Notes: generated from the letters alone by a model not told the origin. A DNA stretch of 64,000 bases from Vicinamibacterales bacterium (GCA_965218825.1 OZ244656.1:4765038-4829037), one strand, 5' to 3'. Shown: positions 29,504-63,212, numbered from the stretch's first letter. Translations and numbers: made by a program.

Positions 29504-30891
29504 GGTCCTTCCGGGTTTAGCGTGGGTAGAGGTCGAGCCCTCCGCAGTGAAAATAGATCGCCGTCGTGAAGTGTGACGGGTTGCGGAAGCCGCCGGCCTT
29601 TCGCTTGATGCTCATGATCTTGCTGTTGAGACCTTCAGCCACGCCATTCGTGATCGGATGCTGGACAAAGCGGAGCACCCCTGCGAGATGCCGCTTCAAC
29701 GTCTTCGCCACCTGCTTCACGGGCGCGAGCCGCGAGCGGATCGCCCAGCCATACCAGCGCGTGAAGAACCGCGTCACGGCCGCATGCTGACGGTAGGTCC
29801 ACAAGGCCCGCAACGCTTCTTTGATCGCCCACGCGCGCCCGACTTTCAACTTCAGCGCTTGGAGCGTCGCGAACGCGGCCGCATGCCGCGCCGGCCGCCG
29901 CTCGTCGCTGAACAGCCACAGGTACTTGGTGCCGGTCAGCGGCGCACCCTCGCCGGCCCGCAGAAAAGCGCGATGCTCCTGTTTGCGGACCGTATCGACG
30001 GCCTTCGTCATCTCCCGCATGATGTGGAACCGATCGAAGACGATCTTCTCGTCGCCGGCGGGCAGGCCGTCCCGCGTGGCGCCGATGTACGCCTCCCACA
30101 TGTCCATCGCGACGGCGTGCAGTGCCCGCCGCTGGGCGTCCGTCAACTGGGCATCGTACGCCGCCAGACTCTCCGTCTTGCGATCTTCGGCCACAAACTC
30201 GACGGTCGCCCGCTGGAGGTCGCACACGATCGTGTGATAGCGATGGCCCTTGCGGAACGCCTTCTCGTCGACGCCGATGTAGCGGATCGGCCGCGCCTCT
30301 TTCCGCGCGTGGCCCCGCGCGACGGCGCGGCTCATCACGCCCCAGGCCTCGTCCCAGCTGACGCCCGCGATCTCACACGCACCTTTGACCGTACTGCACT
30401 GCAGGATCAGATCGATGATCAACCGTTCCAACAACCCCGTGAAGCGGCTCCGTGGCTCGGCCCACGGCACCCGCACTTGCTTCACGCCATGGGTCGGACA
30501 CTGCACCCGCGGAATCTCGGCATGCAGGTGCGTCTGAAACTGACACGTGTCGAGATGGCGCCACGTGCGCTCTGCCGCATGATCGAAGGCGGGCACCGTC
30601 TCGCCGCAGTTGGGACAGGGCCAGCGCGTCGGCTCGTGCTCTAGCCACACGTCGACCCGCTCGTCCTCGGGTTTCAGCTCGACGCGCGCCACGTGCCAGG
30701 GGGTAGGGATCCCCAAGATCGTCTCGAACAGCTTGGTATCCTGCATTCGCTCCTCCGCCGGAGCGGTCTATCAGCAGGACACCTCGAGTGCAATCCGCCG
30801 CCGAGCAAGCCCCCACCCACCAGGGGGCCCCCGCAGGCGGCCTGACGAGTCACCCGGGATCCTTGCGACCCACGGAGATCCCGGAAGGACC
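29504..30891 (-). mobile_element. ISL3-family IS, copy 1 (1,388 bp)
   Basis: Inverted repeats GGTCCTTCCGGG(T/A)T..CGTGGG at both ends. Flanking 8-bp duplication ACTTTTTC (29496-29503) / ACTTTTTT (30892-30899). Confidence 0.9.
29517..30746 (-). CDS. ISL3-family transposase
   Basis: 409 aa with an N-terminal zinc finger (WPCPNCG...CPTHG) and a DDE_Tnp_ISL3 body (YIGVDEKAFRKGHRYHTIVCDL, NGVAEGLNSKI). Confidence 0.9.
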   Translation of the reverse strand: MQDTKLFETILGIPTPWHVARVELKPEDERVDVWLEHEPTRWPCPNCGETVPAFDHAAERTWRHLDTCQFQTHLHAEIPRVQCPTHGVKQVRVPWAEPRSRFTGLLERLIIDLILQCSTVKGACEIAGVSWDEAWGVMSRAVARGHARKEARPIRYIGVDEKAFRKGHRYHTIVCDLQRATVEFVAEDRKTESLAAYDAQLTDAQRRALHAVAMDMWEAYIGATRDGLPAGDEKIVFDRFHIMREMTKAVDTVRKQEHRAFLRAGEGAPLTGTKYLWLFSDERRPARHAAAFATLQALKLKVGRAWAIKEALRALWTYRQHAAVTRFFTRWYGWAIRSRLAPVKQVAKTLKRHLAGVLRFVQHPITNGVAEGLNSKIMSIKRKAGGFRNPSHFTTAIYFHCGGLDLYPR

Positions 30892-32358: not shown

Positions 32359-33387
32359 TTATGCGGTGCCGCGTCGTACGAGGCGGAGGGGTGATGCGGT
32401 GCGCGGGGCGGCGGTGCCGGCCGCGTGGGGCCGCCGACGGGCTGGCACCGCCTGCGCCTGCTGCGCCAGATACTCGACGAGCTGGTCCCCGGCGTCGAGC
32501 AGTTCCTGCTCGTTAATAATGTTGTAGCGGTCGAAGATGGCGCGGCTCTTGTGCCCGGTCAGGAGCATGGCGACCCGCTCGGGGACACTGGCGCGGATCA
32601 GGTTGCGCGCGGCGGTGCGGCGACAATCGTGAAGGAAGCGAGTCGGCACCCCAGCGGCCTGGCAGGCGGTGCGCCACGCCGTGCGCCAGCGGCGGACGGG
32701 GATGCCGTCGCGGTGGAAGACGAGCAGGCTGTCGGGGTCGCGGCGTGCCCGCCGTCGTGCCAGCGCGTCGGCAATGGGGGGTGAGATGGGGAGAATCCGG
32801 CCCACCAGCGTCTTCGAGCGCGCGGGCGAGAGTCGGATGACGCCGCCGGCCTCGTCGATCTCCTCCCAGGTGAGGCCGAGGAGTTCCTGCTTGCGCCAGC
32901 CGGAGTAGTAGGCGAGATCGAGGATGTCCTGCCACGGGGCGGGCAGGTGGACGCGGACGGCAAGGTATTCGGGGTGCTCGAAGAAGCCCTGGCGGGGGGG
33001 ATTCTCGCGCAGCCGGTCGGGGAACCCGGGCACGGTGTCGAGCCAGCCCCAGTGGACAGCGAGGGTGCCCATGCGGTGGAGGGCCGAGGTCTCGCGGTTG
33101 ATGGTGCCGGTGGCCGCCCCGGCGGTGCGCCGGGCGAGTTGATACTGGCGGATCCGGTACGTGGTGAGCGCGGCGGCCCGCGCGTCGCGGCCGAAGAAGG
33201 CGGCGAGATGGGCGGTCCGGCCGCGAGCGGTGCTGACGGACCGGAACTGCCGGACCTGATAGTCCTGGAGATAGGCGTCGATAAGGTCCCCCAGGGTCGG
33301 CCCCTGGGGGCCGAACGTGCACGTGAGCGGCGCCGTGGCGTGTGCGTCACCGGAGGCGGTGGTCGAGACGGTCTCGGGCGGGGTCAT
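32359..33387 (-). CDS. tyrosine-type site-specific recombinase/integrase, paralog 1
   Basis: AAGGAGG RBS before ATG 33387. Catalytic set ARSKT (R), HDCRRT (HxxR), GHKSRAIFDRYNI (H..Y). An N-terminal SAM-like domain is present. Confidence 0.9.
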   Translation of the reverse strand: MTPPETVSTTASGDAHATAPLTCTFGPQGPTLGDLIDAYLQDYQVRQFRSVSTARGRTAHLAAFFGRDARAAALTTYRIRQYQLARRTAGAATGTINRETSALHRMGTLAVHWGWLDTVPGFPDRLRENPPRQGFFEHPEYLAVRVHLPAPWQDILDLAYYSGWRKQELLGLTWEEIDEAGGVIRLSPARSKTLVGRILPISPPIADALARRRARRDPDSLLVFHRDGIPVRRWRTAWRTACQAAGVPTRFLHDCRRTAARNLIRASVPERVAMLLTGHKSRAIFDRYNIINEQELLDAGDQLVEYLAQQAQAVPARRRPHAAGTAAPRTASPLRLVRRGTA

Positions 33388-33547
33388 GGACTCGGGTCCT
33401 CCTTGTGGTGGCGGCCGCGGGTAGGCGGCGTCCGTCCACATTCGCTCTGGTGGGCGCGACAGGCAAGCGGAATGTGCGACGGCGACGGCACGGCGATGTG
33501 GGAGGATGGCGGCCGAGTGCACATGTACGGAGCGCGAATTCGGCCGG

Positions 33548-33730
33548 GCCGGACACCGCCCGCCTGTGCGCCGCAGCTCACGCACAGGCCACCGATACGA
33601 ACCGGCCCGCGATCGTGGCACACGCGGCGACGGGGGCGGGCCAACGCCGCAGAACACGAGGACGCCCCGGGCCAGGCTGCGGGTGTATGCCGGAAGGCTG
33701 GATGCTACTCGCCGGCGCAGGACCGCACCC
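33548..33730 (-). repeat. ~183-bp repeat arm upstream of integrase 1
   Basis: Its reverse complement aligns end to end with 63624-63807 at roughly 88% identity by eye. Confidence 0.7.
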
Positions 33731-47847: not shown

Positions 47848-49257
47848 CTACATGACGACTCCAGTCTTGGCATCGACGAGCTCGCACCCCAGCGAGGCGG
47901 CGCGCCTCCGGAGGCCGCGCAGGATCCGCGATCGCTGCTGTTGGTCGTAGTCGGCGGCCGTGCGCTCCCGGTAGGGGAGGCGGTCCCGGAGCATGCGATA
48001 CACCAGGATGGCGAGCTTGCGGGCCGTCGCCGTGATCGCCTTGGCCTTGCCGGCGCGGGCGGCGAGCCGCCGGTAGAACGCGCCGAGCGCGTGATCGCTG
48101 CGCCCGAGACTCATGGCGGCCAGGCGGAGGGTCTTTGCCGCCCGATTGGCCGACGGTTGCGTGCGGGAGCTGAGGAGCTTGCCCCCGGAGATCTGGTTCC
48201 GGGGCGCGACCGTGAGCCACGAGGTGAAGTGCTTCTCCGTCGCCCAGCGACGCATATCGACGCCGATCTCGGACACGAGTTTGAGCGCCCCATACGGCCC
48301 CAGGCCTGGGATCGCGGTCAGGTCGACGCCTGCGCACAGCGTATACAGCGGGACCCGGATCTCGAAGCGGGGTTCGTTGGCACTCCGCCGCCGCGCGGGT
48401 CGGGGCGGGTCCGGCGGCTCATCGGGGGTCTGGCAGGTCGCCTCGAGGGCGCGGATCTGGCACTGGATCTCGTCGTCGCAGCGGCCGATCTGCGTCTGGT
48501 AGAAGTCGTAGCCCTCGAGCGCTTGGCGAAGCACGAACAAATGTTCGGCGCGGTAGTGCCCTGTGAGCGCGGCGGCGATCTCCGCCTCGGTGGCCTTGCA
48601 GCGCGGGTCGCGGTGCCGGGCGAGGACAGCGGAGTCGGTTTCGCCCGCGACGATGTCACGTAGGATCGCGACCCCGGTCACCCCGGTGACGTCGGTCAGG
48701 ACGTGATGGAGCTGGAGGTTCATGAGGACGAGCGCCTTCTGCATCCGCTGGACCCATGAGGCCGCCGACTCGACCAGCTGATCGCGGTGCCGGATGACGC
48801 TGCGCAGCGCCGCGATCGGTGCGTCGGGCCGGAAGCTCCCGCGCAACAGCCCGAAGGTGTGCAGCTGCTGGAGCCACTGGCAATCGACGATGTCGCTCTT
48901 GCGGCCGGGCACGCCCTTCACATGGTGGGCGTTCACGAGCAGCACCTCGATCCCACGGGCTTCGAGGAGTTCGTACAGCGGGATCCAGTAGACCCCCGTC
49001 GACTCCATGGCGACCGTGTCAATCCCGCACGCCTCGAGCCAGGTGGCCAACGCGGTGAGATCATGGGTGAAACTCGTGAATTCTCGTACCGGCTGGTCGT
49101 CCCGATCGTCGGGCACCGCCACCCAGTGGCTCGCGCTGCCGATATCGATGCCGGCGGCGTTCAGATGGATCTTTCGGAGAATCTCTTGCTCTTGTCGAGC
49201 GCGCTGCTGTGCTTGACCTCGTTCTCGTTGCGTCACGGGGGGCTCCTTGGGGATCAT
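47848..49257 (-). CDS. IS110-family transposase (intact)
   Basis: 469 aa with AAGIDIGSASHWVAV, VAMESTGVYWIPLYELL (DEDD domain), and a C-terminal Transposase_20 region LPGLGPYGALKLVSEIG. Confidence 0.9.
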   Translation of the reverse strand: MIPKEPPVTQRERGQAQQRARQEQEILRKIHLNAAGIDIGSASHWVAVPDDRDDQPVREFTSFTHDLTALATWLEACGIDTVAMESTGVYWIPLYELLEARGIEVLLVNAHHVKGVPGRKSDIVDCQWLQQLHTFGLLRGSFRPDAPIAALRSVIRHRDQLVESAASWVQRMQKALVLMNLQLHHVLTDVTGVTGVAILRDIVAGETDSAVLARHRDPRCKATEAEIAAALTGHYRAEHLFVLRQALEGYDFYQTQIGRCDDEIQCQIRALEATCQTPDEPPDPPRPARRRSANEPRFEIRVPLYTLCAGVDLTAIPGLGPYGALKLVSEIGVDMRRWATEKHFTSWLTVAPRNQISGGKLLSSRTQPSANRAAKTLRLAAMSLGRSDHALGAFYRRLAARAGKAKAITATARKLAILVYRMLRDRLPYRERTAADYDQQQRSRILRGLRRRAASLGCELVDAKTGVVM

Positions 49258-50537: not shown

Positions 50538-51941
50538 TTGGGAATTGAAGCGGCTCCAAACCCTGTGGTTTGATGACGTTGCCTAAGACGAACATCACGC
50601 CACGAGAGAAAGGAGCCGAGATGAGCAGTGTCCTACGACCCGTCAGGAAGCGCAAGAAGGTTCGCACGTTGGGCCCGGTCGACGTCATCGACCGGAAGGA
50701 GTACGCCGAACTGGACGTCGACACCAAGGTGGAGTTGATCCGGTCCTTGGTGCCGCTGGGGTTGCTGCATGTCGAGGAGTTGCTCGACGCGGAGGTGACG
50801 GCGCTGGCGGGCGGGCGCTATGCCCGCAAGGACGCATCGGTCGGCGGGCGTCGTCATGGCAGCAACCCCGGGACGGTCGGGTTGGCCGGCCAGCGCGTGC
50901 CAATTCGCGTGCCACGGATTCGCCATGTCGCGGGGAGCGAGATGCCGCTGCGGTCCTACGAGGCGTTGCATGGGGAGCGCGCGGTGAACGACCTGCTGCT
51001 GAAGCGCGTGCTGTACGGAATCTCGTGCCGCAACTACGAAGCCGCGGCGGCGGCGATTTCCGGAGCCATCGGGCTGTCGGGGTCGACCGTGTCCCGGGGC
51101 TTTATTCAGGCTAGCGCGGCGAAACTGCGGGAGCTCCAGGAGCGGGACCTCTCCGGCGAGGACGTGGTGGCCGTGGTCCTGGACGGCAAGACCGTTGCCG
51201 AGGCAACGATGGTCATCGCGCTGGGCATCACGATGGCGGGGGAAAAACGCTTTCTGGGCTTCGTCGAGACGGATACCGAGAACGAGAAAGTGTTGACCCC
51301 GTTCTTGCGGTCGTTGGTCGAGCGGGGTCTTGACGTCTCCCAGGGCGTGCTGGTGATCCTCGACGGCGGCAAGGGGCTGCGATCAGCCGTCCGCAAAGCC
51401 TTCCGGGACCGGGCGCTGGTCCACCGGTGCCAGTGGCATAAGCGCGAGAACGTGGTGAGTTACCTGGCCAAGACCGAGCAGGCGTCGTGGCGCCAGCGCC
51501 TCCAACGCGCCTACAACCGTCCGGAATACGACGAAGCCCGCGCGGCCCTTGAGACGCTCCATCGCGAGCTGGAGGACCGGAACCAATCGGCGGCCCGCAG
51601 CTTGGCGGAAGGCTTCGACGAGACCTTGACGCTGCATCGACTCGGGCTCTACGGCGTTCTGGGCCGCTCGCTGAAGACGACGAACTGTCTGGAGTCCGTC
51701 AATGCGCTCGTCGAGGAACGCTGCGCGAAGGTCGATCACTGGCAAAACTCGCGTCAACGTCACCGCTGGCTGGCGACCGCGCTCTTGGACATCGAACCGC
51801 GCCTGCGCAAGGTGATGGGGTACCGGCACCTGCCCACGCTCCGTGCCGCGTTGAAGCGAGAACTGAAGATCGACACGACGACGTCGAAGAAGAAAGCCGC
51901 GTAGTCAATCAGGAGCCGTAGAGAGTTTCAACTAAGAATGG
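50528..51941 (+). mobile_element. IS256-family IS (boundaries +/-10 bp)
   Basis: Inverted repeats CTTAGTTGGGAATTGAAGCGGCTCC (50533) and the reverse complement of GGAGCCGTAGAGAGTTTCAACTAAG (51912-51936). It is inserted into the IS630 3' end. Confidence 0.75.
50621..51904 (+). CDS. IS256-family (mutator-type) transposase
   Basis: AAGGAG RBS. VVAVVLDGKT, LVILDGGKGLRSAVRKAF, HRCQWHKRENV and TTNCLESVNALVE. Confidence 0.9.
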   Translation: MSSVLRPVRKRKKVRTLGPVDVIDRKEYAELDVDTKVELIRSLVPLGLLHVEELLDAEVTALAGGRYARKDASVGGRRHGSNPGTVGLAGQRVPIRVPRIRHVAGSEMPLRSYEALHGERAVNDLLLKRVLYGISCRNYEAAAAAISGAIGLSGSTVSRGFIQASAAKLRELQERDLSGEDVVAVVLDGKTVAEATMVIALGITMAGEKRFLGFVETDTENEKVLTPFLRSLVERGLDVSQGVLVILDGGKGLRSAVRKAFRDRALVHRCQWHKRENVVSYLAKTEQASWRQRLQRAYNRPEYDEARAALETLHRELEDRNQSAARSLAEGFDETLTLHRLGLYGVLGRSLKTTNCLESVNALVEERCAKVDHWQNSRQRHRWLATALLDIEPRLRKVMGYRHLPTLRAALKRELKIDTTTSKKKAA

Positions 51942-51976: not shown

Positions 51977-53296
51977 TGCCCGGGGTCGGCCGCGTCGGCC
52001 CGCCCCGTCACCGCGTGTGCCACGATCGCGGGCCGGCCCGTACTCTGGGGCCTGGATGCAATCCCCGGCGCACAGCCGGGCGGTGTCCGGCCCCCGCCGC
52101 CCCCCGCTGCCCTTTACGCGGTGGTGCGTCGCACGAGGCGGAGGGGTGATGCGGTGCGCGGGGTGGCGGGACCGGCCGCGTGGGACCGCCGACGGGCTGG
52201 TACCGCCTGCGCCTGCTGCGCCAGATACTCGACGAGTTGGTCCCCGGCGTCGAGCAGTTCCTGCTCGTGGATAATGTTGTAGCGGTCGAAGATGGCCCGG
52301 CTCTTGTGCCCGGTCAGGAGCATGGCGACCCGCTCGGGGACATTCGCGCGGATCAGGTTGCGGGCGGCGGTACGCCGACAATCGTGAAGGAAGCGGGTCG
52401 GCACCCCGGCCGACTGACAGGCGGTGCGCCACGCCGTGCGCCAGCGGCGGATCGTGATCCCATCGCGGTGGAAGACGAGCGGGCTGGTGGGATCGCGGCG
52501 CGCTCGCCGTCGCGCCAGCGCCTCGGCGATGGGCGGCGAGATGGGGAGGATGCGTCCCACCAACGTCTTCGAGCGCGCGGGCGAGAGTCGGATGACACCG
52601 CCGGCCTCGTCAATCTCATCCCAGGTGAGACCAAGGATCTCCTGCTTGCGCCAGCCGGAGTAGTAGGCCACATCGAGGATGTCCTGCCACGGGGCGGGCA
52701 GGTGGGCGCGGACGGCGAGGTATTCGGGGTGCTCGAAGAAGCCCTGGCGGGGGGGATTCTCGCGCAGGCGGTCGGGGAAGCTGGGTACGGTATCGAGCCA
52801 GCCCCAGTGGGCGGCGAGGGTGCCCATGCGGTGGAGGGCCGAGGTCTCGCGATTGATGGTGCCGGTGGCCGCCCCGGCGGCGCGCCGGGTCAGTTGGTAC
52901 TGGCGGATCTGATGCGTGGTCAGGGCGGCGACCCGCGCGGCGCGACCGAAGAAGGCGGCAAGATGGGCGGTCCGGCCGCGAGCGGTGCTGTGGGACCGGA
53001 ACTGCCGGACCTGGTAGTCCTGGAGGTAGGCGTCGCTGAGATCTCCCAGGGTCGGCCCCAGGGGGCCGAAGGTGCGCGTGAGCGGCGCCGTTGCGCGTGA
53101 GTCACCGGGGGGGGTGGCGGTCGAGCCGGTTTCGTGCGGGGTCATGGACTCGGTTCCTCCTCGTGGTGGCGGCCGCGGGCAGGCGGCGTCCGTCCACATT
53201 CGCTCTGGTGGGCGCGACAGGCAAGCGAAATGTGCGACGGCGAAGGCACGGCGATGTGGGAGGATGGCGGCCGAGTGCACATGTACGGCGCGCGAA
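51977..53296 (-). mobile_element. tyrosine-recombinase unit, copy 2 (left arm clipped, right arm absent)
   Basis: 51977-52095 aligns with the inner about 120 bp of the 63624-63807 arm. The leader 53146-53296 matches copy 1. Similarity stops at gaattcggccgg. Confidence 0.5.
52114..53145 (-). CDS. tyrosine-type site-specific recombinase/integrase, paralog 2
   Basis: 344 aa, roughly 90% identical to paralog 1 by eye, with the same catalytic residues and RBS. Confidence 0.9.
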   Translation of the reverse strand: MTPHETGSTATPPGDSRATAPLTRTFGPLGPTLGDLSDAYLQDYQVRQFRSHSTARGRTAHLAAFFGRAARVAALTTHQIRQYQLTRRAAGAATGTINRETSALHRMGTLAAHWGWLDTVPSFPDRLRENPPRQGFFEHPEYLAVRAHLPAPWQDILDVAYYSGWRKQEILGLTWDEIDEAGGVIRLSPARSKTLVGRILPISPPIAEALARRRARRDPTSPLVFHRDGITIRRWRTAWRTACQSAGVPTRFLHDCRRTAARNLIRANVPERVAMLLTGHKSRAIFDRYNIIHEQELLDAGDQLVEYLAQQAQAVPARRRSHAAGPATPRTASPLRLVRRTTA

Positions 53297-53868
53297 TTCG
53301 GCCGGTGCTCCCGCCCCACCGTGCGGCCCGGCCGGACCGTGCACGACGCGCGCGACCACGGCGACGGCTCCGACACCCGCGCGTGCGGCCGGCGGACGAG
53401 CGGCTCGCTGACCGAAACCCGCGTTCGCGACTGGCAGGACTGGCCGGACCGGTTCGACGGGTCGGCGGACCGGCACATGAACTCAGGCCCGCTGGACGGG
53501 ACCGACCAACGGGCCAGGCACGTCCTCGCCGCGTGCATCGAGTCAGACGGACCAGTCGACGCCGATGGCGATCAGGCCCTGGTCATCGACGATGCGCGCC
53601 ACCCGACCTTCCTGCCCAGTGGCGAGGCGGCACGGCCCTGGAACGCGCCCACCGGGGCGCTCGTGCGTGCGCCGGCCACGCCGCCGCCGGTGCTCGGGGC
53701 CGAGGCGCGTGGCCCACCTCTCCGATGAGCCCGATGTGACCTGGCTGGTCAACGGTCTCGCGGCCAAGGATGGGATCGAGCCATCGGGTCCGTGAGCAGC
53801 CACCGGCGTGCCGCGGCGGTGGCTGCACGAATCGTGACGGGTCCGCACGAGGCCCACCGACAGGATCC

Positions 53869-54661: not shown

Positions 54662-56086
54662 CTACCAGACCAGCCAGTTCGACTCCGGCCTGACGCAACG
54701 CGCGATGAGTTGCGAGAAGGCATCCACGTCGTCGTCGTGCGCGCCCGTCGGAAACACGCAGAGCTGGTGCAGGAAGTCGTCCACCCACGCGCGCTCGGGG
54801 CGGGCGCGCCCGTGCGGTCGCGGGTCTGGCAACCAGACGTTGCCCGCCTCCACCATCGGTGCCGCCGCCTCGGCACGCGCGTACTTCCCGCCATCGGGCA
54901 TGACTGGGATGATGCCGGCGATCTGGTGCGTGAGGACATTGATAATCGCGAACCCATTCGCCGCCTCTTCGATCAGGGTGGTCTGCGTCCCCGGATACCG
55001 GCCGTGGAGGCGGACGACTTGCCGACGCGTCTCCGTGAAGTCCCATTGTCCTTTCACGCGGTCGACCAGGTAGACGTCCGCGCCCTCGCGCGCGGCTTGC
55101 AGACCGACGACGTAGTCGTTGGAGGGACCGCCTTTGAATGACATATCCCACGATGCCAGCCACGTGCTGACGCGCGGCCGTTCGTCGTAGAACTTGAACC
55201 ATGCGCGTTTGAACAGTCGCCCCCCAGCAGGTGCGGGCCGTTGTTGATACTGCGTGTCGAAGGCGGTGGATCCGAGTTGCCGGCGCTGCAGGGCCAGTTC
55301 CGTCGGGCCTTCGCGCGCCGGCCAGAGGAGGTGGCCCGGTGCGCGAGTCTCGACCCGGCCGGACACCGGAAACACAATGTCCGTCGCCACGTCGGCCTCC
55401 ACGGGTAGGCACAGGTGCCGGTACCCGAGTTCGAGGCACCGTGCCGACAGATCCGCCTCGTGTAGCCGCTGCATCACGACCACGACCGCCCCGGTTTTCG
55501 GGGTGTCGAGCCGTGTGGACAGCGTCTCTCGGAAGAACCGCAAGGCGGCCTCGCGTTGTGCGTCGCTGTCCGCCTGTTGGGGGTTGTGCAGATCGTCCAC
55601 GATGATCCGATCGCCGCCTTTGCCCGTCGCGGAGCCGCCGACCGAGGTGGCCACCATGACGCCCTGGCGGGTATTCCGGAACTCGCCTTTGACATTCTGA
55701 TCGGAGGAGAGCTGCACGGTGTGGCCCCACCGTGCCTGGTACCACTCCGACTGCACCAGGGTGCGACGGTCGAGGGACAACTTCAGCGAGAGCGCGTCGC
55801 TGTAGCTCACACAGATCCAGCGTCGACTGGGGGATGCGATCCACTCCCACACGGGCCAGAACACGGACACGAGGAGGGACTTCATGTACCGCGGCGGCAG
55901 GTTGATCAGGAGTCGCGTGGTCTGACCCGCCGTGATCGCTTCCAGGTGCTCGCAGACCAGATCAATATGCCAGTTCGGCAGAAACGGTGTCGTCGGTTCG
56001 AGCACGGGCCAGGCCTGTTCCACGAACGCCCGCAACGAGCGGGCGGCCTGCCGGGTGAGGAGTTCATCTTGGAGCTCGGCGTACAC
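54662..56086 (-). CDS. phage terminase large subunit-like protein (orphan)
   Basis: FLPNWHIDLVCEHLEAI, LINLPPRYMKS (Walker A variant), IIVDDLHNP (Walker B) and C-terminal nuclease-domain motifs SWDMSF and HDDDVDAFSQ. No other phage morphogenesis genes are nearby. Confidence 0.8.
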   Translation of the reverse strand: MYAELQDELLTRQAARSLRAFVEQAWPVLEPTTPFLPNWHIDLVCEHLEAITAGQTTRLLINLPPRYMKSLLVSVFWPVWEWIASPSRRWICVSYSDALSLKLSLDRRTLVQSEWYQARWGHTVQLSSDQNVKGEFRNTRQGVMVATSVGGSATGKGGDRIIVDDLHNPQQADSDAQREAALRFFRETLSTRLDTPKTGAVVVVMQRLHEADLSARCLELGYRHLCLPVEADVATDIVFPVSGRVETRAPGHLLWPAREGPTELALQRRQLGSTAFDTQYQQRPAPAGGRLFKRAWFKFYDERPRVSTWLASWDMSFKGGPSNDYVVGLQAAREGADVYLVDRVKGQWDFTETRRQVVRLHGRYPGTQTTLIEEAANGFAIINVLTHQIAGIIPVMPDGGKYARAEAAAPMVEAGNVWLPDPRPHGRARPERAWVDDFLHQLCVFPTGAHDDDVDAFSQLIARCVRPESNWLVW

Positions 56087-56125
56087 GGCCTGCCGGGTGC
56101 TGCCAAGAATCGCGGAGACAAAAGA

Positions 56126-57514
56126 GGTCCTTCCGGGTTTAGCGTGGGTAGAGGTCGAGCCCTCCGCAGTGAAAATAGATCGCCGTCGTGAAGTGTGACG
56201 GGTTGCGGAAGCCGCCGGCCTTTCGCTTGATGCTCATGATCTTGCTGTTGAGACCTTCAGCCACGCCATTCGTGATCGGATGCTGGACAAAGCGGAGCAC
56301 CCCTGCGAGATGCCGCTTCAACGTCTTCGCCACCTGCTTCACGGGCGCGAGCCGCGAGCGGATCGCCCAGCCATACCAGCGCGTGAAGAACCGCGTCACG
56401 GCCGCATGCTGACGGTAGGTCCACAAGGCCCGCAACGCTTCTTTGATCGCCCACGCGCGCCCGACTTTCAACTTCAGCGCTTGGAGCGTCGCGAACGCGG
56501 CCGCATGCCGCGCCGGCCGCCGCTCGTCGCTGAACAGCCACAGGTACTTGGTGCCGGTCAGCGGCGAACCCTCGCCGGCCCGCAGAAAAGCGCGATGCTC
56601 CTGTTTGCGGACCGTATCGACGGCCTTCGTCATCTCCCGCATGATGTGGAACCGATCGAAGCCGATCTTCTCGTCGCCGGCGGGCAGGCCGTCCCGCGTG
56701 GCGCCGATGTACGCCTCCCACATGTCCATCGCGACGGCGTGCAGTGCCCGCCGCTGGGCGTCCGTCAACTGGGCATCGTACGCCGCCAGACTCTCCGTCT
56801 TGCGATCTTCGGCCACAAACTCGACGGTCGCCCGCTGGAGGTCGCACACGATCGTGTGATAGCGATGGCCCTTGCGGAACGCCTTCTCGTCGACGCCGAT
56901 GTAGCGGATCGGCCGCGCCTCTTTCCGCGCGTGGCCCCGCGCGACGGCGCGGCTCATCACGCCCCAGGCCTCGTCCCAGCTGACGCCCGCGATCTCACAC
57001 GCACCTTTGACCGTACTGCACTGCAGGATCAGATCGATGATCAACCGTTCCAACAACCCCGTGAAGCGGCTCCGTGGCTCGGCCCACGGCACCCGCACTT
57101 GCTTCACGCCATGGGTCGGACACTGCACCCGCGGAATCTCGGCATGCAGGTGCGTCTGAAACTGACACGTGTCGAGATGGCGCCACGTGCGCTCTGCCGC
57201 ATGATCGAAGGCGGGCACCGTCTCGCCGCAGTTGGGACAGGGCCAGCGCGTCGGCTCGTGCTCTAGCCACACGTCGACCCGCTCGTCCTCGGGTTTCAGC
57301 TCGACGCGCGCCACGTGCCAGGGGGTAGGGATCCCCAAGATCGTCTCGAACAGCTTGGTATCCTGCATTCGCTCCTCCGCCGGAGCGTTCTATCAGCAGG
57401 ACACCTCGAGTGCAATCCGCCGCCGAGCAAGCCCCCCACCCACCAGGGGGCCCCCGCAGGCGGCCTGACGAGTCACCCGGGATCCTTGCGACCCACGGAG
57501 ATCCCGGAAGGACC
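56126..57514 (-). mobile_element. ISL3-family IS, copy 2 (1,389 bp)
   Basis: Same inverted repeats as copy 1. Perfect 8-bp duplication ACAAAAGA at 56118-56125 and 57515-57522. Confidence 0.9.
56139..57368 (-). CDS. ISL3-family transposase
   Basis: 409 aa, differing from copy 1 at 2 residues (V/G, A/S). Confidence 0.9.
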   Translation of the reverse strand: MQDTKLFETILGIPTPWHVARVELKPEDERVDVWLEHEPTRWPCPNCGETVPAFDHAAERTWRHLDTCQFQTHLHAEIPRVQCPTHGVKQVRVPWAEPRSRFTGLLERLIIDLILQCSTVKGACEIAGVSWDEAWGVMSRAVARGHARKEARPIRYIGVDEKAFRKGHRYHTIVCDLQRATVEFVAEDRKTESLAAYDAQLTDAQRRALHAVAMDMWEAYIGATRDGLPAGDEKIGFDRFHIMREMTKAVDTVRKQEHRAFLRAGEGSPLTGTKYLWLFSDERRPARHAAAFATLQALKLKVGRAWAIKEALRALWTYRQHAAVTRFFTRWYGWAIRSRLAPVKQVAKTLKRHLAGVLRFVQHPITNGVAEGLNSKIMSIKRKAGGFRNPSHFTTAIYFHCGGLDLYPR

Positions 57515-57541
57515 ACAAAAGATGACGGGGCCGAGACCACA

Positions 57542-60500
57542 GTGGCCAGTAAGTCCCTTGCCGACCTGCCGCCCGACCAGCTTCCGCCGTGCATAGCTGA
57601 GCGCGCAACCTTCATAGCGCCGTTCCCGATCTCCATCACCAAGCGACATCCTTACGCCGAGCGGAACTCGGAGTCGCACGGCCATTTTCGCCAGACGCCC
57701 TACAGGATGCCTCCCTATAGCGCCGCGTGTGTCCCGTTTCGCTGGATGCTGACAAAGGAGAGTGCTGAGCTCGTCGAACGATATGACCTCGGTTTCCAAC
57801 CGGACCGCGAGCCGGATCTAGGGTTCGACTCCAACTGGATCCAAGAGCGATCGAACCAGCTGGTAATGTTAGATACCTTCTTTGGCGCCATTCGTTCCGA
57901 GGAATCCCTTTGCTTCTTCTACGCAAAAGACACGCCTCTGTCAGTATCGACGCGTCGGGTCATTGTCGGGATCGGCCTGGTGCGGTCGGTGAACGATCAC
58001 GTCGAGTACCAATACTCCACCTCGAATCCGCCCCATCGAAGTGTGATCTGGGAACGGAACGTCGAGCACTCGATAAGACCCGACTTCAAGGATGGTTTTC
58101 TGTTCCCTTACCGGGAGCTGTTTGATCTCGCCCTCGACAAGGGGCTTGACCCTGAGCAGTTCCTCGCGTTCGCGCCGGACGAGGCGTTCTCGAACTTCTC
58201 GTTCGCATCCGAGCACATCTCGCATGACCGCGCCATCGCGTCCGTTCTGAGCTGTATGCGGGCGCTGGAACGCATCGACGCTGTGCTGCCTGGTCCGTGG
58301 AGGCGAGTGTCAGCTTGGCTAGACCAACGACTAAACACGCTGTGGCGCATGCGCGGCCCGTTTCCCGGTTTTGGGTCCGCGCTCACCGCGTTCCTTGGCG
58401 ACGGTGGCAACCTAGTTGCCTACGAACTGGCCGAGGAGTGTGCGAAGGGAAGCAGCGACGGGAACGTCGATCCATGGCCAGTTCTCGAGCAAGTCATGCG
58501 AGCTCCGGACACAGCGACCGGCGCAGCGAAGGCCGTCATCGGTGAGGGTTTCGCCCGGGCGTGGCTGGCGATGACCCCAGAGCGGAAGGAGCTGTTGAAA
58601 CTTCTCAGCCGATTCTCGCTCGAGGCCTCCCAGGCCGGCCGGTTCTTCGATCCAGTTCAGCGGCCAGCCGACCTGGAGGACGCTGCTCTCATCGCCAATC
58701 CGTACCTGCTTTACGAGCATGATCGAGCGTCAGTCGAGCCCGTCTCCGTGCTGACGATCGATCGCGGGATGCTCCCCGATCGAGCTGTGCTCGAGGTGCA
58801 TCCGCTTCCCGATCGGTCTCAACTAGAGGACAAGGTAGATGTGCGACGTGTGCGCGCCCTTCTCGTGGCTGCGCTCGAGCGCGGCGCCGAGCAGGGACAC
58901 ACGCTGATGCCCCGAGGGTGGTTGACAACGTCGATCGCCAGTATGCCACTCGAAACAGACTGCCCTGTTGGACCAGAAGTGCTCGCTGGGCTCAAGGAGC
59001 TGCTCACTGGGGTCGTCGAGCCGGTCGACATGGCGGACGGAAGCTCAGGATACCAGCTCAGACGTTTCGCGGGCACCGCCGGGCTCATTCGTCGCACCGT
59101 ACAGAAACGCCTGGGACCCAAGACCCGGCGCCACAAGGGAAGCCACGACTTTCGCTCTGTAGTGGACCACTCGCTAGGGGATCTCCCCGCAGATCCAACC
59201 GAGGCGACGATCGAAGAGAGGGCTCGTATCGAGAAAGCTGCAGCGCTCGAGGAAGTCTTGGCGTCGAGACTCTCTGTACTCGTCGGAGCCGCAGGGACCG
59301 GCAAGACCACGCTCTTGAAGATGCTCGCCGGGCTGAAAGACGTGTCGACCGGCGGTGTCCTACTGCTCGCACCTACCGGAAAAGCGCGCGTGCAGCTGGA
59401 GACAAAGACCGAGATGGCCGGCGGACTCACGATCGCGCAGTTCCTGATGCGGCACGGCGAAAGATACGAACCAGACACCGGCCGTTACGTGGTCACCGGG
59501 AGTGCCAATCGCTGTGGCGACTATCGAACTGTGGTCGTCGATGAGTGCTCGATGCTCACGGAAGAACAGCTAGCCGCTTTGCTCGACGGCCTGAGCGGCG
59601 TCGACCGCTTTGTCCTAGTCGGTGACCCCCGGCAGCTTCCTCCCATCGGAAGCGGGCGCCCCTTCGTGGACATCGTCCGAGAACTTCAGCCCGAAGGCGT
59701 TGAACATCGCTTTCCCCGCGTCGGTCGAGGCTACGCCGAACTGACGATCCCGCGCCGCCAACAGGGAACGACACGGGCCGACCTACTGCTCGCTAGTTGG
59801 TTCGGGGGCAGCGCCGACCCTGCGGCAGACGAGATTTGGGACAGACTCGAAACCGAGAAGATGCCCGAGATCTGCCTCGAATCATGGACCGACCGCGAAG
59901 ACCTTCAGGCGAAGTTGCTTGCCCTAATCGTTGCGGAGCTCGGGCTCGAAGGGCAAGACGACGAAGTGGGCTTCGAATGCAGCCTGGGTGCGACCACCTA
60001 CAACGGCGGTACCTTCTTCTGGCGTAGTCGTAACCCCGAGGATGGGCTTAGGGCCGAGCGATGGCAGATCATCTCACCCGTGCGCGGCGCGGATCATGGT
60101 GTCGACTCGCTGAACCGGCTCATCCAGCAGACATTCCGGAAGATATGGCTGTCGCGCGCAACTGCCCGCCGATCCCGGAAGATCCACCGTCCGCTTGGTC
60201 GACAGGGGATCATCTACGGGGACAAGGTCATCAATTTGCAGAACAGTAGCAAACGGAGGGTGTATCCAGAGCGAACCTCATATGTAGCGAACGGCGACGT
60301 CGGTCTCGTTGTCGGCAACTACAAGACCAAGAAGCAGAAGAAGCTGTACCCCTATCTCGAGGTCGAATTTACCTCTCAGCAGGGCTACGACTACGACTTC
60401 GGTGTCTGGGAGTTCGGAGAAGAGGGCTCGTCGCCTCTCGAGCTCGCATACGCGCTGACTGTGCACAAGACACAGGGTAGCGAGTTCGGGATCACCTTCG

Positions 60501-61114
60501 TCGTGCTGCCGAATCCCTGCTGGCTGCTGTCCCGCGAGCTTCTGTATACAGCGTTGACACGACAACAGGATCGCGTAGTCATCCTCCATCAGGGCGGTGT
60601 GCGCGAGCTGCGCCGCTATGCGAGCGAGAAGCACTCCGACATCGCGCGTAGGCTGACCAATCTCTTCGCGCCTCCAAGTCCGGTCTCGTTCGAGGTAGAT
60701 GGCAGCGAGCGATTCCTCGAAGACCGGCTCATTCATCGCACGAAGCGCGGCGATCTCGTCCGGTCGAAGTCCGAAGTCATCATTGCCAACGAGCTCCTGG
60801 CGCAAGGGGTTGATCGCTACGAGTACGAGGCTGCACTCGCGCTACCGAACGGCGAGACGCGCTATCCGGATTTCACGATCGTGGACGACGACACGGGAGC
60901 ACGCTACTACTGGGAACACCTCGGGCTATTGCATAACCCGGACTACGCAGCGCGTTGGGAACGGAAGCTCAAGGTGTACCGCGCTGCCGAAATCCTTCCG
61001 CGTGAAGACGGTGGTGGAAATGCTGGCACGCTGATTGTGACGCGGGATGACGAGGCCGGCGGTATCGACGCCAAAGCAATCGCGGACTTAATCTCGGAGG
61101 TTCTCGCACCATGA
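57542..61114 (+). CDS. SF1 (RecD/TraA-like) helicase fused to a C-terminal PD-(D/E)xK-like nuclease, with a ~600-aa unassigned N-terminal region
   Basis: GAAGTGKTT (59285-59311), VVVDECSM (59531-59554), LVGDPRQLPPIG, ALTVHKTQGSEF, YTALTR. C-terminus RSKSEVIIANEL..YPDFTIVDD..YYWEHLG (60761-60925). The ORF-track start 57410 lies inside ISL3, so GTG 57542 is used as the first native in-frame start (uncertain). Confidence 0.8.
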   Translation: MASKSLADLPPDQLPPCIAERATFIAPFPISITKRHPYAERNSESHGHFRQTPYRMPPYSAACVPFRWMLTKESAELVERYDLGFQPDREPDLGFDSNWIQERSNQLVMLDTFFGAIRSEESLCFFYAKDTPLSVSTRRVIVGIGLVRSVNDHVEYQYSTSNPPHRSVIWERNVEHSIRPDFKDGFLFPYRELFDLALDKGLDPEQFLAFAPDEAFSNFSFASEHISHDRAIASVLSCMRALERIDAVLPGPWRRVSAWLDQRLNTLWRMRGPFPGFGSALTAFLGDGGNLVAYELAEECAKGSSDGNVDPWPVLEQVMRAPDTATGAAKAVIGEGFARAWLAMTPERKELLKLLSRFSLEASQAGRFFDPVQRPADLEDAALIANPYLLYEHDRASVEPVSVLTIDRGMLPDRAVLEVHPLPDRSQLEDKVDVRRVRALLVAALERGAEQGHTLMPRGWLTTSIASMPLETDCPVGPEVLAGLKELLTGVVEPVDMADGSSGYQLRRFAGTAGLIRRTVQKRLGPKTRRHKGSHDFRSVVDHSLGDLPADPTEATIEERARIEKAAALEEVLASRLSVLVGAAGTGKTTLLKMLAGLKDVSTGGVLLLAPTGKARVQLETKTEMAGGLTIAQFLMRHGERYEPDTGRYVVTGSANRCGDYRTVVVDECSMLTEEQLAALLDGLSGVDRFVLVGDPRQLPPIGSGRPFVDIVRELQPEGVEHRFPRVGRGYAELTIPRRQQGTTRADLLLASWFGGSADPAADEIWDRLETEKMPEICLESWTDREDLQAKLLALIVAELGLEGQDDEVGFECSLGATTYNGGTFFWRSRNPEDGLRAERWQIISPVRGADHGVDSLNRLIQQTFRKIWLSRATARRSRKIHRPLGRQGIIYGDKVINLQNSSKRRVYPERTSYVANGDVGLVVGNYKTKKQKKLYPYLEVEFTSQQGYDYDFGVWEFGEEGSSPLELAYALTVHKTQGSEFGITFVVLPNPCWLLSRELLYTALTRQQDRVVILHQGGVRELRRYASEKHSDIARRLTNLFAPPSPVSFEVDGSERFLEDRLIHRTKRGDLVRSKSEVIIANELLAQGVDRYEYEAALALPNGETRYPDFTIVDDDTGARYYWEHLGLLHNPDYAARWERKLKVYRAAEILPREDGGGNAGTLIVTRDDEAGGIDAKAIADLISEVLAP

Positions 61115-61152
61115 GTGCGAGCCATTTCCGAAGGCGCGGGCCTTCTTAGCGT

Positions 61153-61182
61153 GTGTCAAAAACGCAGAGCGTTTTTTGTGTG
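61153..61182. repeat. palindrome TGTCAAAAACGC-AGA-GCGTTTTTTGTGTG (partial 4th copy of the TGTC-rich repeat; possible terminator)
   Basis: About 40 nt after the helicase stop. It shares the aaacgcagagcgtttttt core with 47804-47830 and the flanking gcgagggcgccgg with copy 1. Confidence 0.45.
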
Positions 61183-61476
61183 GCGCCGCGGCGCGAGGGC
61201 GCCGGGGTGAGGCCCACTGATCACCGCCGCGACGGTAGACAAAAAACGGGTTGGACGAAACCGCAGCGAGATCCGTCTATGGGGATTCGATCGTCGGAGG
61301 CATGCCGTGAGCAGGTCGTGTGGCACGGCGGTGGACCCTGGGTGCGTGGGCGGAGCCGACGAGGGGGTGTGGCCGGACCGCCCGTGCCGGTGTGGTGGAT
61401 GAAACGCGCACACGACTCCTGACACGGGTGCTGGCCGCGGTGAAGTCGGCACGGGCGGCCGTCGAAAAGTGTGCGG

Positions 61477-62055
61477 TCATGACGAATCCAGAATCGCGGG
61501 GCGACGAGCGGTGGCGACCAGGCCGTCGACGAGCTGCATCTGCCCGTCGTGACACCGGGGACAGAGGCGCAACGACCGTCCGGTCAGGGCGTGATAGCGA
61601 TCCCGATAGTCGATGGACACCGGGGTGGCGTCCGGCCGGGTCGCTGACCGAGCGCCGAGGAGCTGTCGGCACTGCGCCACGTGCTGGTGCCGTGTCCGAT
61701 TCGCGAGCAGGCCGTAATACCGCATGCGGTGGAAGCCGCGCGGGAGCACATGCAGGAGGACGCGCCGGATGAACTCCGTCGCGGCCAGGGTCATGGTCTT
61801 CTGACCCGGTGCGTGGGGACGGCGGTAGTCGGTGTAGCGGAACTGGACCTGTCCCGCGGCGAGGGCGAGGAGCCGCTGGTTGGAGATGGCGATCCGATGC
61901 GTGTACCGGCCGACGTAATCGAGCACCTGGTTGGGCCCGGCGAAGGGCGGTTTCGCGTAGACCACCCACTCGGTCTGCCGGGCGGGCTGGAGATGGTCGG
62001 CAAAGTGCTGCCGATCGTTGAGGGCGTCGAGCGAGGGTGTCCCCAAGAAGTATCG
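61477..62055 (-). pseudogene. IS91-family transposase, C-terminal fragment
   Basis: WVVYAKPPFAGPNQVLDYVGRYTHRIAISNQRLLALAAGQVQFRYTDYR...TEFIRRVLLHVLPRGFHRMRYYGLLA. Confidence 0.75.
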
Positions 62056-62133
62056 GCTGCAGCGCGCAAAGCGATTTCGCATGTGCAGAAGAAGTGGTGG
62101 GCAGCTCAGAAGCTTGCAAAGAAGTAGCCTTCT

Positions 62134-62871
62134 ATGTCCTTTATTGTCGGCCTGAACCTCGAACAATACGCCCTTCTCGGAGCCGACACACGCGTTTCGT
62201 ACTATCCGGGCAACCGGCTCGTTTACCGAGACGACGAGACGAAAATCAGAACGACGTCGGTTGGACTAATCACCGGTGCGGGCTTGTGCGATCTCCTCGA
62301 CCCGGTCAAAGACCGAATGGCGGTTGAGGAACCGCCACATACTGATGCGATAAGGCAAGTCATCAGGGAAGAGTGCCGGGAAGCGCAGCGTCGCTTCGCG
62401 AACTGTCCTGACCAGCGGGTTCAAGAATCGTTGCAGACGACCGGCTGGATGATGACCTACCTCACCGATACCGAGCAGTACTTTCCGGCCGGGCTACGCG
62501 TAGCCATCATGGGCTCCGCAGATGAGAACAACCGCTTTCAGCTTGCGCCTCCTGGAATACCGGCGTACTTACCGTTTTCGGGGATTACACAGGAGCAGTA
62601 CGACGAGCTGCTCAAGATGCTCAAAGACGAACTGCGGCCGTGGAAGCAAGCTGACGAGTCGCTGAGCGACAACGTGGTTCATCATGTTGGGATCATCGCC
62701 CGAGTCATCAAGCGCGCCTCTGAGATGAGCGAGATGGTCTCTCCCACATTCCAGATTGGGATTCAGACCATCACGTTCGATGTCGGAATCTCAAACATCT
62801 TCAATCTGGATAGCCCGGACGACTTCGGTTTTCAGTGGGTTCCCAAAGCGGACACAGAAGCTGCACCATGA
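62134..62871 (+). CDS. hypothetical protein with a proteasome-beta/HslV-like (Ntn hydrolase) N-terminal pattern
   Basis: MSFIVGLNLEQYALLGADTRVSY...ETKIRTTSVGLITGAGL parallels (T)TIVGv..dgVvLAADTRaT...KI..i....AGs of proteasome-type Ntn hydrolases, with Ser2 in the nucleophile position. GC is lower than in the neighbours. Confidence 0.5.
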   Translation: MSFIVGLNLEQYALLGADTRVSYYPGNRLVYRDDETKIRTTSVGLITGAGLCDLLDPVKDRMAVEEPPHTDAIRQVIREECREAQRRFANCPDQRVQESLQTTGWMMTYLTDTEQYFPAGLRVAIMGSADENNRFQLAPPGIPAYLPFSGITQEQYDELLKMLKDELRPWKQADESLSDNVVHHVGIIARVIKRASEMSEMVSPTFQIGIQTITFDVGISNIFNLDSPDDFGFQWVPKADTEAAP

Positions 62872-63071
62872 ACGAATGTTTCTTCTGTGGGCCGACAGAG
62901 CGTCCGCTCACCGACGAACACGTCTGGCCGAAGTGGGTGTCGAAGCTGCTGCAAGACAAGTACGGAGCCGACCACTTCGTTCACATCCGCTCGACCGGCA
63001 GTAGCACTGAGGGCTACTGGAAGTCACCTCATCTCCAGGTCACAATCGACAGTCTGTGTGAAACGTGCAGC
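62868..63071 (+). pseudogene. HNH_5-type endonuclease-like protein, N-terminal fragment
   Basis: The start overlaps the upstream stop (ATGA). MNECFFCGPTERPLTDEHVWPKW...SLCETC fits the C.fC...lT.EH..P...C..CN pattern. It is cut by an IS5 remnant at about 63072. Confidence 0.5.
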
Positions 63072-63200
63072 CCCGCAGGGCGGGGGACTGAGGTCGTCCT
63101 CGCGTGCAACATCCTGAATCAGATGACTGGGCTTGGCAGGCCAATGTCGTACCGCATCGGTCGGTGAAGGAACTGTGGATCGGGACCGGTGCGGGCTAGC
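63072..63200 (+). pseudogene. IS5-family remnant (transposase C-terminus plus end region)
   Basis: GRGTEVVLACNILNQMTGLGRPMSYRIGR, then ctgtggatcgggaccggtgcggg, which resembles the IS5 3' end. Confidence 0.65.
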
Positions 63201-63212
63201 TCCGATTCATGC

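Follow-up and report, generated by a model that had tools for sequence, protein, structure and literature searches.

The 64,000-nucleotide stretch of Vicinamibacterales bacterium DNA analyzed here (GCA_965218825.1 OZ244656.1:4765038-4829037; hereafter the window, with positions counted from its first letter) contains a helicase-nuclease gene that is very probably a decayed member of the PADLOC family PDC-S68 and a recent pseudogene. In the window, codons 1-35 and the DNA upstream of them have been replaced at position 56082/83 by a 5'-truncated phage terL gene, and an ISL3-family insertion sequence (IS) then split the remaining coding sequence (CDS) at codon 48/49. We regard the gene as a pseudogene because its N-terminus is lost, an IS lies inside its CDS, and no promoter-like site lies between the IS and position 57542. 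The explanation as a whole, which we consider likely, is that the window holds a recently inactivated copy of a family whose intact members form an autonomous anti-phage module. Judged by its sequence, the gene is a new but defective copy of a widespread, already catalogued candidate anti-phage family.

The open reading frame (ORF) at 57410-61114 (+) encodes 1234 amino acids (aa) and is open throughout, and its in-frame start, GTG 57410, lies inside the ISL3 element. A preliminary description of this DNA had reported the same ORF, and its account of the coding content holds up well: the Walker A (GAAGTGKTT) and Walker B (VVVDECSM) motifs lie where it placed them, the motifs LVGDPRQLPPIG, ALTVHKTQGSEF, and YTALTR are present, and the nuclease-like motifs RSKSE...YPDF...YWEHLG are found at 60761-60925. 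Domain profiles and Foldseek both agree with its picture of a single polypeptide that joins a superfamily 1B (SF1B, RecD-type) helicase to a C-terminal PD-(D/E)xK-fold nuclease. The lower GC content that it noted for the gene is likewise real (0.611; the window as a whole has 0.637, terL 0.662, and the IS 0.655).

The family assignment follows from profile searches, which overturn the earlier view of the gene as an orphan of an unassigned family. The ORF was scanned against PADLOC-DB, where 16 families matched at E <= 0.01; the PDC-S68 model PDLC05065 aligned from end to end (E = 0, 1452.2 bits, residues 35-1231 against profile positions 41-1218 of 1221), and two more PDC-S68 models matched at 3e-137 and 1.9e-112. 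A word-indexed search recovered 1,581 homologues, the full-length ones typically being 1,244-1,250 aa long. Used alone as a query, the N-terminal 580 aa matched at least 1,575 clusters at 50% identity, nearly all of them ~1,240-aa proteins of the same architecture; in the word-indexed search this region matched only fragments of the same family, and no fusion to other effectors was seen there. Among the matches listed in a GTDB scan, full-length members occur in Acidobacteriota, Nitrospirota, Planctomycetota, several Proteobacteria, Bacteroidota, Actinomycetota, and Firmicutes, and no relative exceeds 58% identity. Two nearly identical alleles were found as well: P0020, from another assembly, is 100% identical, and segments of the locus L001 are 99.9% identical to the window. 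The acronym PDC denotes "phage defence candidate," a class whose members were recognized by their location within BREX, DISARM, and type I restriction-modification (R-M) loci (Payne et al., bioRxiv 10.1101/2024.01.29.577857). The earlier designation of the gene as a defence candidate is thus upheld, both by its PADLOC class and by the defence contexts of its relatives.

Alignment with L001 located the damage at the 5' end of the gene. By blastn, L001 10104-10146 corresponds to window 56083-56125 (100%), L001 10139-12914 to window 57515-60290 (99.9%), and L001 13129-16143 to window 60198-63212 (99.9%). L001 1-10103, which contains codons 1-34 and a 10-kb upstream operon, has no DNA or protein match anywhere in the 64-kb window, and a tblastn search of the window with the N-terminal peptide gave a sole match at 56085-56126. 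Compared with the portion of the ORF lying right of the IS, intact homologues have ~46 additional N-terminal residues, and their N-terminus reads MIxGARRLPxQHxSIRVPWHDxGWxGTVCxxPxxNTACRxLxRIAExKDD. Eleven of its invariant residues (P9, H12, R16, P18, W19, D21, W24, G26, C29, P32, and N35) are lost here. In the model of the intact allele described below, residues 1-50 are ordered (predicted local distance difference test score, pLDDT, 89-96), with a strand at 11-16 that forms the first core beta-strand. The native start codon and family residues 1-48 are not contiguous with the rest of the gene in the window, and with the native start codon and promoter missing and the 11 invariant residues gone, first core beta-strand included, we infer that this copy is without function. 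The ~1,197 remaining codons are still open and are 99.9% identical to the L001 allele, from which we conclude that the damage is recent.

Two ways of producing the junction were rejected. Insertion of a terL-integrase element into the gene, with the 5' part left at its far end, fails because the 56 kb to the left contain neither codons 1-34 nor any part of the operon. Microhomology-mediated deletion through a 13-nt repeat, GGCCTGCCGGGTG, fails because both copies are retained and neither is at the junction. The copies of this 13-mer lie at 56045-56057 in native terL sequence and at 56087-56099 in native helicase sequence, 42 bp apart, and flank the breakpoint; with one mismatch allowed, ~0.28 matches are expected in the whole window. 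L001 has a lesion of its own, an insertion of ~214 bp at 12915-13128 (window 60198-60290) that includes a 93-bp duplicate of flanking gene sequence and splits the gene into ORFs of 1059 aa and 292 aa, its 5' end being intact. Either the same gene was damaged independently in two close relatives, or the L001 contig is misassembled at 12915-13128.

The second lesion is the ISL3 element. The preliminary description correctly recognized this IS and its perfect 8-bp duplication (three of three ISL3 Pfam domains match, and ACAAAAGA is present on both sides) but misplaced it with respect to the gene, taking the native part to begin after the ISL3 end, the best start to be GTG 57542, and the IS to sit ~20 bp upstream of that start, separating the gene from its promoter. 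When the IS and one copy of the duplication were deleted, the in-frame translation (...TACRVLPRIAETKDDGAET...) was that of residues 36 onward of the homologues P0020 and P0001, and so the IS lies inside the CDS at codon 48/49. Leftward, the in-frame reading of the IS-deleted sequence is ...TACRVLPRIAETKDDGAETTVASKSL. The 41-nt coding fragment stranded to the left of the IS, which supplies codons 36-48, is 100% identical to the 5'-intact allele of L001, and full-length homologues start ~55 codons before GTG 57542. What removed codons 1-35 was the other breakpoint; the IS interrupts the CDS. A promoter scan found no sigma-70-like site between the IS and 57542. Another ISL3 copy at 29504-30891 is 99.7% identical to the one inside the gene.

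The breakpoint also accounts for the neighbouring terL gene. The minus-strand ORF to 56086, described earlier as TerL-like, is a genuine phage terminase large subunit gene, its product having 40% identity to the TerL of Aeromonas phage 56 and 65% to IMG/VR contigs L088-L090. Ahead of the aligned "QDALLTRQAE" region, TerL relatives have another 10-14 residues at the N-terminus, which reads MTTAEHLRRQIQIQDALLTRQAE in a relative as compared with VYAELQDELLTRQAA in the window. The apparent GTG start at 56086 falls in DNA that is 100% identical to the L001 helicase gene. Since the relatives are longer and the terL start lies in helicase-derived DNA, both genes are truncated head-to-head at 56082/83, and the divergent arrangement is a rearrangement scar without functional meaning. 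The DNA upstream of terL is the helicase fragment, and neither terS nor a portal gene was recognized beside terL. On IMG/VR contig L089 (2991-5113), a homologue of the window integrase ORF at 52114-53538 (64% amino acid identity) comes after the terL homologue at a distance of no more than ~200 bp. In the window, terL and this Phage_integrase ORF are ~1.6 kb apart, and the GC-rich spacer (0.71-0.75) contains no recognized gene. Such an association of terL with an integrase gene on small viral contigs may be the signature of a distinct type of mobile element.

Intact members of the family, single polypeptides ~1,245 aa long, comprise a family-specific alpha/beta N-terminal domain of ~285 aa, a RecD2-like helix-hairpin-helix (HHH)/winged-helix module, an SF1B core, and a PD-(D/E)xK-fold nuclease. 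The N-terminal half was examined in an AlphaFold2 model of intact-allele residues 1-602, built on 43 sequences, which is confident (pLDDT 91.7, predicted template modeling score 0.89). Nine of the 43 family N-termini matched Pfam PF14490 HHH_RecD2. Foldseek searches of the Protein Data Bank (PDB) paired the model with the N-terminal part of RecD2 3gpl_A (prob 0.96) and with winged-helix proteins (prob 0.9-0.97), none better than E = 0.1, and the best match in BFVD was a "RecD2-like helix-hairpin-helix domain" protein (E 4.7e-3, prob 0.99). On the basis of the HHH_RecD2 profile and these structural matches, residues ~285-600 look like a RecD2-type HHH/winged-helix module. Residues 1 to ~285 had no match in Pfam, PDB sequences, or Foldseek PDB and BFVD, where the whole 602-aa model was searched, so that weak similarity at the level of the domain is possible. 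In Pfam and PDB-sequence searches with the N-terminal 602 aa and the C-terminal 157-162 aa, singly and as profiles, the only matches were a spurious NDUF_B12 motif and TetR_C.

The preliminary description had tentatively proposed for this region a PUA/EVE-type reader of modified bases. The proposal is not supported, as we found no such match in Pfam (43 diverse N-termini), PDB profiles, or Foldseek PDB and BFVD. No PUA-like family matched the allele in Pfam at E <= 10, and none was among the 25 families listed for the 43 relatives at E <= 0.1; no PUA, EVE, YTH, ASCH, or SRA structure was among the top 50 Foldseek matches in the PDB or BFVD for the whole 602-aa model. The N-terminal domain has invariant cysteines C29, C38, and C72 and near-invariant histidines H12, H20, and H91. 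In the window copy the cysteines no longer share one frame: C29 is deleted, C38 lies on the left side of the IS, and C72 alone remains in 57515-58231.

For the helicase core, Pfam matched AAA_30 at ORF residues 610-759 (3.5e-27), AAA_19, UvrD_C_2 at 1012-1058 (1.4e-11), and, weakly, SH3_13; it matched nothing in the first 600 or last 150 residues. With respect to the relaxase/TraA or RecD2 architecture that the preliminary description had named as a contrary outcome, RecD2 TIGR01448 scored 177.1 bits against a cut-off of 500, TraA TIGR02768 scored 67.5 against 590 in the helicase part only, and no relaxase family matched the ORF or the 43 N-terminal sequences. An AlphaFold2 model of the C-terminal 162 residues has a core with pLDDT > 90, and its best-ranked Foldseek PDB matches are the PD-(D/E)xK nucleases Bax1, R2 RLE, Can2/Cdn1, DrdV, NucS, and Hjc (prob to 0.98). 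Alignments A2 and A3 show no variation at E (SKSE), E-H (WEHLG), and K (RWERK) and almost none at D (YPDF). Where a canonical (D/E)xK triplet would stand, the sequence is E-H-L, and the lysine would need to be supplied by the next helix. The model supports the C-terminus as a candidate PD-(D/E)xK nuclease with a putative catalytic constellation.

To place the family in its genomic context, we used 42 other family loci for tblastn, 40 loci for upstream genes, and seven loci with Pfam-annotated neighbours. In L001 the gene is last in a co-oriented operon of a DEAD/Helicase_C/MZB gene (DruE/DrmA-like), UvrD, a DpdE/DrmD-like SNF2 gene (838 bits), and a DrmMI-like methyltransferase gene, whose stop codon its start overlaps. 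In L085 and L086, which encode 81%-identical homologues, the gene stands behind the same DEAD/MZB-SNF2-methyltransferase set. The UvrD gene is kept in L085, a 61-aa ORF takes its place in L086, and Gabija-like genes and a reverse transcriptase gene lie downstream in L085. A 665-aa gene without Pfam match is found between the methyltransferase and PDC-S68 genes of these two loci (L085 7948-9945, L086 7957-9954) and is missing in L001; it may be another uncharacterized component or an embedded candidate. Elsewhere the genes directly upstream or adjacent are a type IIG R-M gene and Drt1a (L006), a type III methyltransferase and restriction enzyme (L007), DrmD and TmtA (L010), and type I HsdM and HsdS (L018), and SNF2-HEPN, SACS, and methyltransferase genes are adjacent in L004. 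The two nearest upstream genes of the 40 loci (80 proteins) included 5 SNF2/DrmD-like proteins, 5 type I methylases, 4 type I specificity subunits, and 6 type II/IIG-like methylases, and no upstream gene was common to more than three of the 40 loci.

In L001, L085, and L086 (DISARM-like), L018 (type I R-M), L007 (type III), and L006 (type IIG with DRT1), the gene thus lies inside or beside a defence system, the kind of placement on which the PDC definition is based. A lack of defence genes in the neighbourhood, which the preliminary description would have counted against a defence role, is seen in some of the relatives, where the gene stands alone; in others it follows DISARM-like, R-M, DRT1, or DrmD genes. 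Because there is no constant partner, the defence neighbours vary, and some loci are solitary, the loci are consistent with an autonomous single-gene module frequently added onto defence operons that are built around a methyltransferase. In the window itself, no DISARM-like gene or upstream system is left.

Several points weigh against our interpretation. Three of the seven Pfam-annotated loci (L002, L003, and L087) have the gene alone among housekeeping genes. The Foldseek E-values for the nuclease are only 4e-3 to ~0.1, and the domain has no Pfam or PDB-sequence match. The searchable literature yielded no characterization or activity assay of PDC-S68: the family is absent from the main text and searched supplements of bioRxiv 10.1101/2024.01.29.577857, is not among the candidates tested in PMC12881386, and is not characterized in the literature found on RecD-type helicase-nuclease defence proteins. 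Defence function and mechanism are accordingly drawn from domains and neighbourhood only. For the window copy, it is possible that an N-terminally altered protein is expressed from the open ORF with its in-frame GTG 57410 inside the IS, and also that the 56082/83 junction is an assembly join.

Four alternatives were weighed. The reading closest to the preliminary description, in which the gene is intact from GTG 57542, the ISL3 element only parts it from its promoter, and it perhaps works with the divergent TerL-like ATPase-nuclease, can draw on an ORF that is open for 1,234 codons with every helicase and nuclease motif present and on the ATPase and RNaseH-like nuclease domains of the window TerL. 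We nevertheless find it highly improbable, given that homologues start farther upstream with a highly conserved N-terminus, that deletion of the IS extends the CDS leftward, and that the interval between the IS and 57542 has no promoter-like site; the proposed partner is itself incomplete at its N-terminus, having been truncated at the same breakpoint, and a tblastn search with TerL found a homologue in 0 of the 42 other family loci. It is unlikely, too, that the truncated gene is still expressed, from the GTG inside the IS or from an outward IS promoter, and retains a perhaps deregulated helicase-nuclease activity without residues 1-48. The frame is indeed open from the right end of the IS through the junction, and the gene body has neither stop nor frameshift, but near-identity to L001 is equally expected from recent inactivation, no promoter-like site was found, and the missing segment takes with it a core beta-strand of a confident model as well as 11 invariant residues.

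If position 56082/83 were an assembly chimera, the gene in the real genome would follow its operon and be complete except for its interruption by the IS. The region is rich in repeats (two ISL3 copies, IS110, Mutator, and IS91-like elements) and the 13-nt repeat flanks the junction; that repeat, however, is too short to mislead modern assemblers and is not at the junction itself, and the upstream operon is nowhere in the 64 kb, making a chimera very unlikely. The remaining alternative concerns the family, which might be a RecD2/TraA paralogue serving DNA repair, replication, or conjugation instead of defence. Its top NCBIfam matches are RecD2, RecD, and TraA_Ti, it has HHH_RecD2 and RecD2-like structural similarity, and housekeeping genes surround several loci, in one of which the gene comes immediately after a topoisomerase gene. 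Those NCBIfam scores, however, are far below their cut-offs and cover the helicase core only, there is no relaxase domain, the seven Pfam-annotated loci have no conjugation genes, and the family is patchy across phyla and repeatedly found at the 3' end of R-M, DISARM-like, and DRT gene sets. We consider such a housekeeping role improbable and retain the reading of a recently inactivated PDC-S68 copy.

Among known systems, the window protein resembles PDC-S68 in its end-to-end hidden Markov model match, in being a single-gene module, and in having relatives that lie within DISARM-like and R-M loci or are attached to them; it differs in lacking codons 1-35 and in having ISL3 inside its CDS. RecD2 (SF1B, 5'->3', e.g., of Deinococcus, PDB 3gpl) shares the HHH module, the 1A/2A core, the weak SH3 insert, and UvrD_C_2 but lacks both the ~285-aa N-terminal domain and the C-terminal nuclease of the family. 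Hhe and Nhi reportedly follow the logic of PDC-S68, with a polypeptide that acts alone and unites an SF1 helicase with a nuclease of the restriction-endonuclease fold, whereas they are said to be Upf1/DNA2-type helicases with other domain orders and without the PDC-S68 N-terminal domain. The label "Nhi-like" used earlier did not survive, there being no Nhi or Hhe model in the 16 matched PADLOC families; PADLOC-DB 2.0.0 presumably includes models of both. The three nearest relatives are co-oriented with the DrmD/DpdE-like SNF2, DrmMI-like methyltransferase, and DEAD/MZB helicase genes that recall DISARM class 1 (DrmD, DrmMI, DrmA, DrmB, DrmC), but because the PDC-S68 gene also occurs without DISARM genes and behind unrelated systems, it is not a core DISARM component. 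Dna2 and AddAB, repair enzymes with conserved genomic roles, likewise couple an SF1 helicase to a PD-(D/E)xK nuclease that processes the translocated strand, but they differ in domain order and have no sequence relationship to PDC-S68 beyond the superfamily.

From the domains and the neighbourhood, we lean toward the following sketch for the intact protein. The N-terminal domain and the HHH/winged-helix module would select the DNA substrate or sense infection, the RecD-type motor would translocate 5'->3' on single-stranded DNA with ATP (a known property of RecD-type helicases), and the C-terminal nuclease would cut the tracked DNA. The outcome might be that invader DNA is degraded directly, or that the protein backs up a methylation-based system encoded upstream. 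More speculatively, and with considerable doubt on our part, the N-terminal domain could act as a metal-dependent sensor of a new kind, or as a new module for DNA recognition, and license the RecD2-derived motor and PD-(D/E)xK nuclease; methyltransferase-based systems (DISARM-like, type I, and type III R-M) would have recruited the family as a terminal "back-up effector."

Table 1. Features of the helicase-nuclease locus and its surroundings in the window.
Feature	Position	Strand	Remarks
Truncated BREX BrxC/PglY	24177-26462	-	761 aa against positions 1-709 of a 1146-position PADLOC profile, 1024 bits; ~30 kb from the gene
Phage terL, 5'-truncated by ~10-14 codons	54662-56082 (ORF to 56086)	-	Terminase_6C, TIGR01630, and T7-type TerL matches
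Rearrangement breakpoint	56081-56084 (junction 56082/83)		terL-element DNA to the left, gene DNA from inside codon 35 to the right
Stranded helicase-nuclease CDS fragment, codons 36-48 (TACRVLPRIAETK)	56085-56125	+	Left of the IS; matches P0020 and other homologues
Target-site duplication ACAAAAGA (8 bp), left copy	56118-56125		Perfect repeat
ISL3-family IS, 1389 bp	56126-57514	-	Terminal inverted repeats GGTCCTTCCGGG; inserted at codon 48/49
ISL3 transposase	56139-57368	-	DDE_Tnp_ISL3, HTH_Tnp_ISL3, Zn_ribbon_ISL3
Target-site duplication ACAAAAGA (8 bp), right copy	57515-57522		Perfect repeat
Remainder of N-terminal alpha/beta domain (family residues ~47-285)	57515-58231	+	AlphaFold2 model of intact allele
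Helical region and winged helix, RecD2 HHH-like (family residues ~286-600)	58232-59176	+	Pfam, Foldseek
SF1B RecD-type helicase core	59237-60583	+	Walker A 59285-59311, Walker B 59531-59554, weak SH3 insert, UvrD_C_2
C-terminal PD-(D/E)xK-fold nuclease domain (candidate)	60752-61105	+	Candidate catalytic E1122, D1154, E1169-H1170, K1186 (ORF numbering)
Palindrome AAAAACGC-AGA-GCGTTTTT, past the stop codon	61158-61176	none	At most a weak terminator-like hairpin

The remaining features of the window are for the most part mobile DNA. The BREX remnant that the preliminary description had placed in the same region is real and consists of a truncated BrxC gene (Table 1). An IS110-family transposase (47848-49257), a Mutator-family transposase (50570-51904), a Y2_Tnp (IS91-like) fragment shortly after the gene (61477-62166), and a second Phage_integrase-family ORF (32359-33657) accompany the two ISL3 copies. 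The palindrome reported after the gene is present, although as a small one; 61112-61195 folds no differently from shuffled sequences (z = -0.21), and a terminator scan made no call at the palindrome. Between the stop codon and the IS91-like fragment, a 24-nt inverted repeat (61170-61193/61225-61248, 83% complementary, 31-nt spacer) may be the end of the IS91-like element. Searches of Pfam, NCBIfam, and PADLOC gave no match for a 245-aa ORF at 62134-62871 (+) with a low GC content of 0.558; this ORF is kept beside the gene in L001 (15065-15802) and by tblastn is absent from the other 41 family loci.

Taken together, the locus is a casualty of a decaying, IS-ridden defence island that contains a truncated BrxC gene, several IS families, and two integrase-like genes. 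The fitting annotation is that of a pseudogene, neither a candidate new system nor a TerL-coupled pair. The locus itself is ordinary decay, and the remaining interest is in the family, a very widespread candidate whose N-terminal domain has no known match. For the field, the gain is a domain map of PDC-S68 (novel N-terminal domain, RecD2 HHH/winged-helix module, SF1B core, and PD-(D/E)xK nuclease) and the observation that its closest relatives place the gene last, co-oriented, in a DISARM-like operon. The intact alleles P0001, P0002, and P0003 make this candidate family open to cloning.

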